IMG/VR virus record: IMGVR_UViG_3300046779_000230
Span: 87,562-126,495 of that record
Length of the DNA stretch: 38,934 nt
Origin: a virus
Taxonomy: Duplodnaviria > Heunggongvirae > Uroviricota > Caudoviricetes
Reading direction: 5' to 3' (one strand)
Under the pieces are notes generated by a model. It saw nothing but the letters and a program-made list of their open reading frames with translations, did no database searches and had not been told where the DNA came from. The translations under genes and the position numbers were made by a program. Below, piece after piece: positions 24 through 31,495 of the stretch (its first letter is position 1; each line of letters starts with the position of its first letter).

Positions 24-3000
24 TCATGCACAAGCAATAACTCTCAAATCTTTAATTCTAGGAACAGCTGAACTATTTGTTGACTTCATTACAATCTTAA
101 CAACGATATTGTCGAATGGAGCCATGTTATCGATTGTGTAATCACAGTCGTAGAACGAGTCATTTCCATTCTGAACTTTAACTAAATTGGAATCTGGTGT
201 TGCCAGTGTATATTTAGTTGTTGTTAATTTAGTCTTGTCGCCAACACAAGTCTTGTAGTACACAAGCACATCTGAAGAGTTAGGAATATTTGCAGCAAAC
301 TTAACTCTAACATTAGTAGATACGTTTTCCAACTTGACTGCAGAAGTAACGTACTTGCTTAGAGATGAGCTACCGTTAGGTGAAATATCATCCAAGAACA
401 GTTCTCTGATTGAAACAGTTGTACCGCTAACAGAACTCTCAGCAGTGAAAGTTGTGTCTAGAGTCAATGTACCAGTTGTGCCGTCATCTGCATAACCAGT
501 GATTAGAACAGTCTTGTTGTTAGCGCCAGTTGTAGCGCCAGCAATAGTAATGTACTTACCGATAGAAGCAATAGCCATTGCAGTTCTAACCTCAGCGTCT
601 GTAGATGTTATAGTACCACCAGCGGTAAAGTTAAACACACCGTCTGTGTGAGAGAAAATCTGCTTAACGTCTAACGCTGATACGTTGACATTAGACTCTG
701 ATGGACTATTGATCTTGTTAGAGATAGCAATCAAACTTGTACGAGCAGTATCGATAACTGGTGAAACCGCATCGTTAGAAGTTTGTAAACGAGCAGAGAA
801 TGTCAATGACTTGTTACCAGACATCAAGCTGTTTTCGTTTGGCTCAGAAGAAATAACTCTTGGAGTGTAGAAGTAGTTGTTGTCCTTAACCAAGCAAGGA
901 GAGAATCCTGTATCAATTACATAAGGAGTTTCACCACCATCAACAGACTTGCCTGATGTAGTCTTCACTGAGAATGAAGCATTTGTATCAGAGAATGTTT
1001 GCATCTGAACAGATGGAACCAACACGTCGTATTGAATGTTTGCAGTGGCTCTAACACCCAGACCACCAGCATATCCAGTAGAAGTGGCAGCAGTAGTAGT
1101 TGTGATAGTGTAAGAATTCATATCAACGTTTGAAATCAAGTGTTCTTTGTTGAACTCTGACGCTGGGATACCGTTGATCGCAGAAGTAACGCTGTCGATA
1201 ACAACTCTAGAGCTAACAGTCATACCATGGTCTTTGTGCCATACGCGAACTGTTGTAGAACCTACAGCAGTTTGGAATGGATCGTTTTCGATCTCAACGT
1301 ATGGTAGAACGTCGTTAACAAACTCTACGTTACCGATAACGCTAGTGTCAAACTGTGCTCTGTAGATAGAGAACTTAATATCTTGGTTTTGATCAGCTGT
1401 CCATGTAGAAGCGTTTTGTGATTTAAACATAACGCCAGCATAAGGCTGCTCAGAAATAGTTCTGCTAGTTCCAGGAATTGTATCGCCTACGTTAGAGATC
1501 CAAACTTTGTAGTTGTTTGAGTCAGACAGTAGAACAAAACAGTACTCAGCATTATCTTGAACGTAAACAGGAGTTTCGAAAGTAAACGATGTTGCTGTGT
1601 TGTAGTCAGCGTATGATACATTGTCTAGAGTAACAGCAGTGTAACCAGCAGCAACTGGGTCTTCACCAGCAACTGGAGCGTTAACAACTTCTGGCTTTAG
1701 AGTAACTCTAGAGAATGGAAGAATGTTCTTACCTGGATATCCATTTACCATCTCTCTGATTTCAAGAGAAACTGGCACTGCAACGTCTTTAGTTGCAAAG
1801 AACACATCAATCTTTGTCAAGAAAGCACCACCCTTTTGCTGAACCAAGAATGATTGAGCAAGTGGATCGTACCAACCTGTGTCTGAAACAACGCGCTCAG
1901 ATGTTTGATAGATTGTTTGTCTAGCTTCTGGATCGTCATTTGGACCAATAACTTCTTTAACCAACTCTGCATTACGCACAGCGTTGATGATAGATTGTTT
2001 AGTCTCTAGAACACCTTGTGCTCTATACATACCACGACCACGAGATGTGAATTGTCCGTTAACAGTTGGAGTGTCTACCAACTTCAATTCTCTAGAACCA
2101 GTGCGGAATCTAACTGAATCTGTGTTAGGGATATTGAACAAGAAGTTAACTTCACCATTCTTGTTAGAAACTAGAGTAGTTGGTGTTGCTACAGAAACAA
2201 CAGTACCTGTTGCTCCAGAAACAGAACCAGAGAATGACTCGCCAACTGCAAATGTACCTTTAACGTTAGCCAATTCCAGAGTTAATGTATCTGTTTCTGG
2301 ATCGATAGACTTGCTAATAACTACAGCAGAAGCTGTGTCCAGAGAATTAGTGATAACATCACCACGGTTCAAACAAACTTGAGAATCGCCGTTAATTCTA
2401 CGCTTTGTTTCAGATGACGCACCACCAACGTTTGTGTCAGTGTCAAATACACCAACGCCAGCTGTGTAAACCATTTTGATAGATGGAGTCACAAAAGAAG
2501 AGATATCGATATCGTCAAAGAATGGATAGAAACGCGTTTCTGGCTTCATACCCTTTACCTGAACTAAAATATTTCTAGAACGGATATAAGGAATTGTTGC
2601 AGTAGAAACAACACGTTCACCAACTTGTTGGTAATCAGTCTTTGTTGCTAGCTTAGTTCTGATGCCAGTTCTTGATTGACCAACTGGTGTAGCAAAAACC
2701 TCGCTAACAACTTGACGGATAGCCCATCCACTTGCTTCTGGACCAACACCAAACTTGGCATCTAGAGCAGCACCGCCATCACCACCACGACGATCAGCAG
2801 AGTAGCTGCGTGTGCCTTGAGAGATTGGTTGACCAATCCACTCATCTTTCCAAGCACCCCAAACAGTACCATAACCGTTTTCTTGAATAGTGCCAGACTT
2901 GATTGCCAACTCGCGAATCAAGTTGTAGTTACCTTCTACGTTGATGATGTCTGGAGCAACTTTGTTAGTTTCAAACCAATCATCAGAAGGTGGGTTGATG

Positions 3001-29081: not shown

Positions 29082-29639
29082 TTATGATAAATCTTTAACA
29101 TCATCACACAAACCAAGTTTCTTTGCTTCAGTTGGACTCAACCAAACATCTTGTGGTGGCAATAATACTTCGCGAATCTTGGCTTCAGTTAGACCAGTAC
29201 ATTTTTTATAATGAGCGATCATTTTCTTGGTAGTCAAGTCAAATTCTTTAACAGTGGCAAACAATTCGTGTTCTTTACCAATAGCACCCCAAGAGTATTG
29301 ATGAGAAAGAATAGAAGTATTTGGTGTCAACAGTCTCAACCCTTTATCGCCAGCAATAAAGATCATTAAACCAGCAGAAGCAATCTGACCTAAACCAATT
29401 GTGCGAACTGGAATGGCTGAACCACGCATAACATCAATTAAAGCAAATGCGGCATTTAAATCACCACCTGGACTTGTGATTAACAAGTTTAACATCTCTG
29501 GACGTTCTTCAGCAAAGTTTGCTTCGAAAATCCATTCAACTGCTTGCTTACAACTAGCTAGATTAACTTCTTCCATCATTAGGAAGAATGAGTGGCGAGA
29601 TGTTTCTTCTTTTAATTGTAAATTCATTTTGGACATCAT
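29082..29639 (-). CDS. clpP: ClpP-family serine protease
   Basis: LLITSPGG.L.AAFALIDVM, TIGLGQIASAG (catalytic Ser), LTPNTSILSHQ (His), D.WLSP.EAKKLGLCD.V. Confidence 0.9.
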   Translation of the reverse strand: MMSKMNLQLKEETSRHSFFLMMEEVNLASCKQAVEWIFEANFAEERPEMLNLLITSPGGDLNAAFALIDVMRGSAIPVRTIGLGQIASAGLMIFIAGDKGLRLLTPNTSILSHQYSWGAIGKEHELFATVKEFDLTTKKMIAHYKKCTGLTEAKIREVLLPPQDVWLSPTEAKKLGLCDDVKDLS

Positions 29640-30236: not shown

Positions 30237-30440
30237 TTATTTTGCTTCTGCCTTTTTCTTAGGCACTGGCTTGTTTGCTGATGGAGGTGCTTTATCGCAG
30301 TTTTTATCCTTCAACATATCACAATTCTTCTTAGCAGGGGCTTTCTGCTCTTTCTTGACAGGCTCTGGCTTTTTAGTCGGTTCTGCTGCCCAGCTAACTG
30401 ACATTGCCAATAGAAACGCTGTCGTGATAAGGTATTTCAT
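30237..30440 (-). CDS. Small secreted K/P-rich protein
   Basis: Signal peptide MKYLITTAFLLAMSVSWA, Cys pair NCDMLKDKNC; GAGG RBS. Confidence 0.7.
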   Translation of the reverse strand: MKYLITTAFLLAMSVSWAAEPTKKPEPVKKEQKAPAKKNCDMLKDKNCDKAPPSANKPVPKKKAEAK

Positions 30441-30483: not shown

Positions 30484-31050
30484 TTAGAAAGAACGAGAGT
30501 ACTGAAGTGAAGTAGTCTTGTTCGCGCCATCGCCACGTTGAATATCGTGACCGATAGTTACTTTGTCCAACTTAGTCAAAGCATATGTCAAAGACATACG
30601 AGTTGCTTGGTTAGTGTCTTTTGCTAAATCATTAAAGCCATCGCGCCAGCGGTAACCAACTTTAGCAGAAAAACCTTCAACTGGTAGTTTGAAAGAAACT
30701 GCAGGTTCGACAGAGTAGTATGCATAATCTGGTTTACCAGATGCTTGCTTGGTACCAAGACCACCGCGAACAGAAGCTGTTACGCTAGAGGATACTGGAA
30801 GGCTATAAATCAATCCTGCTTCATAACGATTAGTGATAGTGTTTGCAACATCAGCAGTAGTAGCTGAGATACCCAAATCACCATCAATAGACTTTGTTAA
30901 CTTAGTCTGGACTTTCAATGCAGTAACATGCTTTTGTACTGCAGGAGAGTCATCATTTTGAACTGCATAATTAACGCTCATAGATGATTGAGCAGATGCA
31001 ACACCAGATACAAATAACAAAGCTGAGGCTAAAGCCATTTTCATTTTCAT
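30484..31050 (-). CDS. Putative outer-membrane beta-barrel protein
   Basis: Sec signal peptide (..VASA|QS), alternating amphipathic strands (RYEAGLIYSL, FSAKVGYRWR, RMSLTYAL), C-terminal ..LQYSRSF. Confidence 0.75.
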   Translation of the reverse strand: MKMKMALASALLFVSGVASAQSSMSVNYAVQNDDSPAVQKHVTALKVQTKLTKSIDGDLGISATTADVANTITNRYEAGLIYSLPVSSSVTASVRGGLGTKQASGKPDYAYYSVEPAVSFKLPVEGFSAKVGYRWRDGFNDLAKDTNQATRMSLTYALTKLDKVTIGHDIQRGDGANKTTSLQYSRSF

Positions 31051-31112
31051 AATTTCCCTTTAAAAATATTGTTGTTCATAATATTGGCACCCACTGTGGC
31101 AATACTTTAAAG

Positions 31113-31460
31113 TGGTTGGTTATTCTGTTACGAGGAAACCAACCGAAACCCTAAGCAGCGTTTAGGCTGCTAATGCGTAGACAGAGTCGTTTGCATTTAC
31201 TTAGTTTGCTTGATTTACGGTCATCGCCTACCGTGTTGCCGTCTCTACTATCTACCCCTGTCGAAACCAATGCATCCCCATCAATAAGAAACTGAAGATA
31301 AACCCAACGGTGTTCATCATGACGATAACCATTACATGCATGTAATGGTACACCATATTCGTTAGGTCTATTCAAATTCATAACAATTCCCTATTGGTGG
31401 AGATGGGCGGAGTCGAACCGCCGTCCAGAAGTCCTTCGCTTTGAAGGGATTACAACAATA
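31113..31460 (-). ncRNA. ssrA: Circularly permuted (two-piece) tmRNA
   Basis: Acceptor piece ~31460-31395 (GGACGGCGG-TTCGACT-CCGCC-CATCTCC-ACCA); coding piece from 31279 (GGGGATG..TTCGAC) with tag GCA AAC GAC TCT GTC TAC GCA TTA GCA GCC TAA = ANDSVYALAA at 31194-31162; the acceptor stem has the G3:U70 alanine determinant. Confidence 0.93.
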
Positions 31461-31466
31461 ACTTAT

Positions 31467-31495
31467 ATTATACTTCTATATTTATTGGAAGTCAA
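31467..31495 (-). promoter_or_regulatory. sigma70-type promoter of tmRNA
   Basis: TTGACT-N17-TATAAT; predicted start ~31460 at the 5' end of the acceptor piece. Confidence 0.85.

Follow-up and report, generated by a model that had tools for sequence, protein, structure and literature searches.

What kind of RNA is encoded by a phage locus whose tRNA-like halves stand in reversed order, and what is carried by the segment between them? The question is raised by the minus strand around positions 31,113 to 31,495 of a 38,934-nucleotide (nt) stretch of phage DNA (IMG/VR virus record IMGVR_UViG_3300046779_000230, positions 87,562 to 126,495), which is called the window here and forms the final 39 kb of a record of 126,495 bases with 39.4% G+C. 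The first-pass annotation, made from the letters alone, proposed a phage-encoded circularly permuted, two-piece transfer-messenger RNA (tmRNA) gene, ssrA, with its own promoter. Taken as a whole, the evidence is best explained by a functional beta-type circularly permuted ssrA with a small-protein gene in its spacer, a reading which we hold with good confidence.

The permuted form of the gene is recognized by ARAGORN and by Rfam. ARAGORN calls a permuted tmRNA with the tag ANDSVYALAA, the sole tRNA-like gene of the whole 126.5-kb record, and places the 3' tRNA domain at gene positions 55-93 and the 5' domain at 209-235. The same order can be read from the sequence, where a CCA-ending 3' tRNA-like half lies upstream of a 5' half that starts with GGGG. 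In Rfam, RF01850 (beta_tmRNA) scores 155.7 bits (gathering threshold 84; E 3e-48; model positions 1-331) and is the best match of its clan, a lower-scoring overlapping match having been dropped. The RF04321 (tmRNA_permuted) scores 151.5 bits (gathering threshold 47) over the full model (1-213), and a whole-genome run agrees. With such ARAGORN and Rfam results the tmRNA elements are not due to chance, and the earlier call of a permuted tmRNA is confirmed, all of its landmarks lying on the minus strand where the first-pass annotation had placed them.

The predicted RNA consists of an acceptor piece and a coding piece (Table 1), for which the sizes of about 65 nt and about 165 nt predicted in the first pass are reasonable. 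The acceptor piece contains the 5' strand of distal P2, a local hairpin CCUUC/GAAGG, the P2a strand ACUUCUG, the T arm and the 3' strand of the acceptor stem. The coding piece has in its 5' part the acceptor 5' strand GGGGAUG (31279-31273), a D-loop-like segment UGGUUUCGA, the P2a strand CAGGGGU and the distal P2 strand GCAACA, and further on a hairpin CGGU/ACCG in the region of pseudoknot 1 (PK1), the tag frame, the stop-codon hairpin and a 3' hairpin. A two-strand fold of the predicted pieces recovers the acceptor stem, the T arm, P2a and distal P2. The pairing of AGGGGT with ACTTCT noticed in the first pass makes up six of the seven pairs of helix P2a (ACUUCUG/CAGGGGU) in the Rfam alignment and the two-strand fold, and that of GGGGATG with CATCTCC gives seven pairs including G3:U70. 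The alanine identity elements are therefore at hand in the form of this 7-bp acceptor stem GGGGAUG/CAUCUCC with G3:U70, the discriminator A73 and the CCA. The PK1-region hairpin CGGU/ACCG fits the Rfam model, the tools used being ones that do not model pseudoknots. On the tmRNA strand, no terminator-like site was found before 31050 and the next gene.

Relatives of the gene were drawn from an IMG/VR scan with a degenerate acceptor-piece pattern, which gave at least 119 loci; ARAGORN makes a permuted call in 101 of the 119 loci listed. IMG/VR contains more than 100 beta-type permuted genes, mostly in syntenic T4-like contigs. According to tblastn with proteins of the window, most matches listed belong to one T4-like lineage, and the order PhoH-GH19-PDDEXK-(2OG)-tmRNA-(OMP)-SleB-ClpP-gp32 is repeated in dozens of IMG/VR contigs (2OG, 2-oxoglutarate-Fe(II) oxygenase; OMP, outer-membrane protein); the 2OG oxygenase protein, used as the query, gave two weak loci only. 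In published phage genomes (18,146), 53 two-piece tmRNAs were counted among 133 unique tmRNAs, 50 of them from aquatic phages, and a two-piece tmRNA was described in the T4-like phage Melnitz (Buchholz et al., 2022; PMC9004378). The first-pass annotation had regarded a permuted tmRNA in a phage as a rarity whose novelty would fall if such genes turned out to be common in T4-like phage genomes; the published counts and the IMG/VR loci take this novelty away.

The mature parts of 87 unique phage sequences were aligned to follow covariation. The G3:U70 pair is present in 87/87 sequences, and 83-87 of the 87 are canonical at all 19 pairs of the acceptor, T and P2a stems. The acceptor pair 5:68 occurs as A-U (49), G-C (21) and C-G (13), the second T-stem pair as G-C (43), C-G (18), A-U (16) and U-A (10), and P2a pairs 1 and 2 have three compensatory forms each. 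The invariant G3:U70 together with the covarying stems indicates that the RNA is under selection. Such covariation is what would be expected of a working alanine-accepting tmRNA, and it makes a pseudogene or an assembly artefact less plausible. The tag ANDSVYALAA is also found in the IMG/VR loci L004, L020, L074 and L118, and relatives show two architectures of the P2/PK1 region, with or without an insert of about 20 nt. In four loci (L004, L027, L120 and L107) the neighbouring genes are close to those of the window (PDDEXK 88-90%, PhoH 86-91% identity), and the tmRNAs have a different 5' leader and the PK1-region insert of about 20 nt. Very similar neighbours with differing tmRNAs mean that the tmRNA gene itself is mosaic within the lineage. 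Overall, the tmRNA gene appears to be conserved and to have passed vertically within a lineage of uncultured freshwater T4-like phages, which is related to Melnitz and the pelagimyophages.

These comparisons bear on the view that the gene is a fragment or passenger of host tmRNA that was picked up through imprecise excision or misassembly and has no function there. The tmRNA genes are common prophage integration sites according to passages in PMC4383910 and PMC9004378, which lends the view some ground. However, both pieces are complete, the position is conserved in dozens of lytic-type T4-like contigs, the covariation shows selection, and the locus is present in independent freshwater assemblies. 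In an exact search with the P2 strand over one genome per species (185,579 species), the matches are two contigs only, namely L125 (CAZCDW010000126.1) in a metagenome-assembled genome (MAG) labelled uncultured Bifidobacterium sp. and L126 (CALMJT010000228.1) in a MAG labelled Alteromonadales. Each has a G+C content of 39% and encodes a permuted tmRNA as well as a tRNA, and one also has a GH19 homologue; they are probably phage DNA that was binned into bacterial MAGs. No bacterial representative genome with the same P2 sequence is thus left and, since only phage-like contigs match, the gene is no recent copy of any represented bacterial ssrA. A functionless host passenger is scarcely credible. 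The tRNA of L125 has the anticodon CUA and receives the ARAGORN label tRNA-Pyl; it reads UAG and is a possible amber suppressor.

The segment between the CCA of the acceptor piece and G1 of the coding piece is predicted to be excised, and its protein-coding nature was overlooked in the first-pass annotation. In this 115-nt spacer an open reading frame (ORF) begins with an ATG 13 nt after the CCA, preceded by AGGGA, and its conserved 34 codons lie inside the spacer (31381-31280). Beyond the spacer, the ORF reads on without a stop into the mature coding piece, in a different frame from the tag, as far as the TAG at 31153-31151. A search with the first 45 residues gave five relatives, four of which are likewise spacer ORFs of beta-type permuted tmRNA genes; the fifth (L164-L166) is a free-standing 63-codon gene with no surrounding tmRNA. 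The five tmRNA-borne copies, including that of the window, have five different tags and represent both P2/PK1 architectures. Over their 34 spacer codons, the ratio of nonsynonymous to synonymous substitution (dN/dS) is 0.01-0.12, and the variable columns are distributed over the codon positions as 4:1:13 among the tmRNA-borne copies and as 3:2:11 against the stand-alone copy.

A phmmer search over 1.84 billion representatives extended the family to 59 clusters of 41-101 residues with the near-invariant motif NEYGVPLHACNGYRHDEHYWAWL, and phmmer with a stand-alone member recovers the ORF of the window (E 1.5e-8). The family motif NEYGVPLHACNGYRHDEHYW comprises 24 residues, with near-invariant N, Y, G, V, P, H, A, C, G, R, D, E, H and W, and lies at residues 7-29 of the window ORF. 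Three inspected family members come from unrelated phages, where they are encoded close to portal or head-morphogenesis genes and capsid genes. Pfam, PHROGs and PDB searches gave no match to the peptide, and no nuclease motif was detected in it; the spacing H-x-C...H-x-x-H would suggest metal binding, only as a guess. The spacer therefore encodes a genuine member of an unnamed phage small-protein family under purifying selection. Thereby, the analysis uncovers a widespread, unannotated family with a strikingly invariant motif.

Several observations weigh against a functional ssrA with a protein gene in its spacer. The terminal hairpin of RF01850 is absent at the 3' end of the coding piece, where about 20 model positions are deleted in the alignment, and the completeness of the record is 79% according to CheckV. 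AlphaFold2 models the peptide with low confidence (predicted local distance difference test, pLDDT, 65.5; predicted template-modelling score, pTM, 0.30). None of the five tmRNA-borne copies has a stop in the spacer, and the frame continues as ...F-L-I-D-G-D-A... through G1 into the tRNA-like 5' domain. Its end varies with the tmRNA sequence (53-76 residues in total), and the tmRNA-derived tail has 20-42 residues across the five copies. For a protein gene it is awkward to have an ORF without a stop ahead of the RNase P site. Because no stop precedes G1, a stop-terminated protein and G1 cleavage of the same transcript would be mutually exclusive. The Shine-Dalgarno-like AGGGA is one strand of the stem that closes the spacer and is sequestered in it, so that translation initiation and stem formation should compete. 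The fold of the spacer is strong (-32.4 kcal/mol, z -3.14), and selection probably acts on the RNA structure as well. Within the coding core (codons PLHACNG) lies a perfect 22-nt palindrome, ACCATTACATGCATGTAATGGT, at 31349-31328, and the two synonymous palindrome changes in L161 retain G-U pairs; the same bases thus seem to be under selection at two levels, the protein and the RNA hairpin. The palindrome has no exact match in IMG/VR.

From the fold, the palindrome and the ORF without its own stop, it could be argued that the spacer is only a structured processing element which presents the cleavage sites, the ORF being incidental. The 11-bp closing stem of the spacer (AUAGGGAAUUG / CAGUUUCUUAU) adds to this, since a closing stem also occurs in the non-coding spacers of relatives, where the spacer ends usually pair (AAAGCAUAUU...AGUAUGCUUU) and are followed by UGAU; UGAU ends the spacer just before G1 family-wide. 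However, the stand-alone homologue of L164-L166 retains the peptide without palindrome or tmRNA: 20 consecutive residues, NEYGVPLHACNGYRHDEHRW, are kept at a synonymous divergence pS of 0.73 and the palindrome is destroyed. The low dN/dS and the motif common to 59 protein clusters also speak for a coding role. A purely structural spacer is very unlikely, and the preferred reading is that the structural role and the coding role coexist.

The spacers of the relatives are variable in length and content. Their length in 93 relatives is 20-237 nt (median 76), and the interior of the window spacer is unrelated to those of L015, L020 and L068, although the mature parts are 90-95% identical. Many long spacers have an ATG 7-16 nt after the CCA. 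In 12 of the 42 distinct spacers of at least 75 nt, an early-ATG ORF takes up 90% or more of the remaining sequence; shuffles give 2.5 such spacers, and 0/1000 reach 12. In this lineage, the spacer appears to behave as an exchangeable slot for small genes. The IMG/VR locus L095 (tmRNA 478-918, minus strand) has a spacer ORF of 81 codons in the frame of the tag, ending in ...KANEDSFVAERLAA, and translation of its precursor would therefore yield a protein already carrying the degradation tag. The spacers of L108, L030, L080 and L084 have T-arm-like motifs (GGTTCGAATCC and similar) instead of ORFs, perhaps as vestiges of tRNA-like elements or as duplicates of the acceptor module.

The expression of the gene can be outlined as follows. 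Host RNA polymerase would probably transcribe it early, from the sigma-70-type promoter, as one precursor. Host tRNA-processing enzymes would release the CCA-ending acceptor piece of about 64 nt and, from G1, a coding piece of about 170 nt, with RNase P acting at G1 and 3' trimming to the CCA, by analogy with the two-piece maturation in Caulobacter. The two pieces would be held together by the predicted pairing of acceptor stem and P2, and host alanyl-tRNA synthetase would charge the RNA via G3:U70 and A73. Together with SmpB and EF-Tu of the host, the charged RNA could then rescue ribosomes that have stalled on broken mRNAs, the unfinished protein receiving ANDSVYALAA. The terminal LAA of the tag would serve for recognition by ClpX, and tagged proteins would be degraded by ClpXP, with host ClpX and possibly the phage ClpP. 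The likely benefit would be that ribosomes are kept free and amino acids recycled during the decay of host mRNA. The small protein of the spacer would be expressed from the tmRNA promoter; either the precursor would be translated before folding and processing, or the excised spacer would act as a non-stop message.

In the second case, the spacer gene would be a built-in non-stop message whose peptide is tagged by its own tmRNA, which we consider unlikely. If it were true, the frame would run after the G1 cut to the 3' end of the spacer, where ribosomes need trans-translation, and the peptide level would be coupled to the activity of tmRNA and ClpP, which could make it a self-reporting timer or a route for delivering a degradable regulator. 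The permutation loop of phage tmRNA would then be a dedicated expression slot for exchangeable small genes.

No SmpB, ClpX or SspB was found in the 126-kb record, which is incomplete, so that their absence is not proven; with no ClpX found, the phage ClpP would need a host unfoldase. The lack of a detected phage SmpB would also suit a decoy, that is, a phage RNA which titrates host SmpB or blocks host trans-translation instead of rescuing ribosomes. A precedent is the mycobacteriophage DS6A, for which an RNA with only the tRNA-like domain was proposed as a decoy, as cited in passages of PMC4131195 and PMC11915505. In contrast, the full mRNA-like domain, the resume codon, the ...YALAA tag and the stop in a hairpin loop are all conserved here. 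The tags of the relatives vary and yet nearly all end in AA, most of them in LAA, which is sensible only if they are translated. A decoy is highly unlikely, and ribosome rescue remains the preferred function of the RNA.

The promoter TTGACT-N17-TATAAT was located directly upstream of the acceptor piece, as the first-pass annotation had it, with 11/12 consensus matches. Transcription is predicted to start near 31460, where the acceptor piece begins. The region as a whole has no excess of consensus-like promoter sites (6 observed vs 5.0 expected); this one stands out by its score and by its coincidence with the conserved UUGA...UAUAAU within the Rfam beta_tmRNA model, to which it aligns. The modal geometry of the relatives matches, with the end of the -10 box 71-72 nt before the CCA end, and TTGnnn-N16-18-TAnnnT is present in only 39 of 94 distinct upstream regions of relatives. 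The upstream 2OG-Fe(II) oxygenase gene reaches the -35 box, which its stop codon overlaps. In two freshwater metatranscriptomes, Logan contigs lie over 31205-31269 with a depth of up to 857; these contigs span the conserved tmRNA core only, branch at variable sites and are not attributable to this phage. In other freshwater samples, DNA contigs join across exactly 31284-31395.

Table 1. Positions of the permuted tmRNA gene, its spacer ORF and neighbouring genes in the window
Feature	Position	Strand	Basis or remark
Sigma-70-type promoter	31467..31495	-	-35 TTGACT 31495-31490, N17, -10 TATAAT 31472-31467
Acceptor piece, ~64 nt	31395..31458	-	5' end placed from the promoter position
T arm GGCGG-TTCGACT-CCGCC	31422-31406	-	Sequence
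Acceptor 3' strand CAUCUCC	31405-31399	-	Followed by discriminator A 31398 and encoded CCA 31397-31395
Intervening segment (spacer), 115 nt, predicted excised	31280..31394	-	Between CCA and G1
Small-protein ORF, 76 codons to first stop	31151..31381	-	ATG 31381, TAG 31153-31151
Coding piece	31108..31279	-	Rfam alignment, ARAGORN, two-strand fold; 3' limit approximate
Tag frame: resume codon GCA, ANDSVYALAA, stop TAA	31162..31194	-	ARAGORN
Hairpin AGCAGC/GCUGCU with stop codon in loop	31171-31154	-	Fold/Rfam
3' hairpin GGUUGGUU/AACCAACC	31144-31114	-	Fold/Rfam
188-residue protein, signal peptide, C-terminal ...YSRSF	30484-31050	-	Directly downstream of the tmRNA
67-residue Lys/Pro-rich secreted or lipoprotein-like protein	30237-30440	-	After the 188-residue protein
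Phage ClpP-family protease gene	29082..29639	-	Pfam CLP_protease, E 1.2e-27; 1.5 kb downstream of the tmRNA

The T4-like character of the phage, which had been assigned in the first pass, is borne out by the baseplate homologues gp6, gp5 (with lysozyme) and gp48 and by gp32 and gp2 in the window. For gp32, the nearest cultured phages are the Methylophilales phage Melnitz (51%), a Synechococcus phage and the Pelagibacter phage HTVC008M. Near-identical DNA occurs in freshwater and other aquatic metagenomes of about eight studies, two possible source studies being excluded. Upstream of the tmRNA and on the same strand lie genes for PhoH, a GH19 glycosidase, a PD-(D/E)XK nuclease and the 2OG-Fe(II) oxygenase. 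Downstream, also on the same strand, they are followed by the 188-residue signal-peptide protein, the 67-residue protein, a SleB-type cell-wall hydrolase and the ClpP protease. The 188-residue protein looks like a small outer-membrane beta-barrel and has counterparts with 35-63% identity in several relatives; Pfam, PHROGs and PDB searches gave no match for it or for the 67-residue protein. The ClpP gene adjoins that of the SleB-type hydrolase; the closer relatives show it in synteny with the tmRNA (75-89% identity), and ClpP is, by inference only, a possible functional partner of the tmRNA.

The first-pass annotation had also noted that the tag looks more beta/gamma-like than alpha- or cyano-like and had taken this as a possible hint of the host. 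The type is upheld, as the beta-type model fits best; the hint of the host is weak, given the cases of Melnitz and of phages of Pseudomonas and Stenotrophomonas. The phage Melnitz infects a Methylophilales strain (PMC9004378). Its tmRNA is alpha-type despite this host. In the Pseudomonas phage PA_L9 (L169, PP869205.1), the region 1158-1593 matches beta_tmRNA with 101 bits and has the tag ANDTSFDVRLAA, and in the Stenotrophomonas phage BUCTxx99 (L002, OR529408.1) the region 1455-1780 matches tmRNA_permuted with 100 bits and has the tag ANDDVYVVALAA. Thus, PA_L9 passes the Rfam beta model and BUCTxx99 the general permuted model only; neither permuted tmRNA gene is among the listed features of its record. 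The hosts of these two phages have a one-piece tmRNA. A class-level Rfam search centred on one of the two MAGs with a phage-like contig found no bacterial beta-type tmRNA above the threshold. Freshwater Burkholderiales may be candidates for the host. As relatives carry an alpha-type or a beta-type tmRNA at the same position, the tmRNA type is weakened as a host marker.

In the betaproteobacteria, a two-piece tmRNA was reportedly described by Sharkady and Williams in 2004. The gene of the window matches this form (RF01850) in the promoter boxes, P2, the T arm and the acceptor stem, and the likeness extends to the PK1-region hairpin, the tag and the hairpin after the tag. Unlike RF01850, it has a 93-nt insertion in the intervening loop, lacks the terminal hairpin and is phage-borne. 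The beta-type tmRNA is also carried by phages of hosts with a one-piece tmRNA, which differs from the betaproteobacterial setting.

Among phages, the closest counterpart is the ssrA of Melnitz and the pelagimyophages (Buchholz et al., 2022; PMC9004378), likewise a permuted two-piece tmRNA of a T4-like aquatic myophage with an early-type promoter. The position is the same as in the window: PhoH-PDDEXK-two small genes-ssrA-...-gp32. In Melnitz the tmRNA belongs to the alpha type (RF01849, 106.7 bits) and a glutamine riboswitch comes after it, whereas that of the window is beta-type with 155.7 bits and no riboswitch was matched in Rfam at its locus. Further differences from Melnitz are the freshwater origin of the phage of the window, the ClpP neighbour of its tmRNA and the conserved protein gene within its spacer. 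Permuted genes of cultured phages are listed in Table S1 of PMC9004378, including the Pseudomonas phage SM1, the Stenotrophomonas phages Mendera and Moby, the Sphingobium phage Lacusarx, the Synechococcus phage S-CAM3 and others. These have the same gene form according to ARAGORN, but belong to unrelated phage types (siphophages, Ackermannviridae). With blastn, the acceptor piece of the window matches SM1-like phages and BUCTxx99, and the coding piece matches nothing among 50,697 cultured phage records.

Protein genes within tmRNA genes are represented by homing endonuclease genes inside group I introns (PMC11915505), where likewise the mature tmRNA no longer contains the segment with the protein gene. 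In that case the segment is a self-splicing T-loop intron with a homing endonuclease; in the window it is the permutation loop, predicted to be removed by tRNA-processing enzymes, with a peptide of 34-76 residues. Our literature search found no description of a protein gene filling the spacer of a permuted tmRNA. Permuted tmRNA of phages is already known and common, and the spacer protein gene that crosses the processing site is the new part. One large uncultured freshwater T4-like lineage keeps ssrA at a fixed position, within a known but little-studied class. Compared with these systems, the nested gene matters more than the tmRNA itself: here the permutation loop of an RNA gene is used as a slot for a protein gene, and a frame crossing the processing site raises the question of how translation and RNA maturation share one transcript.

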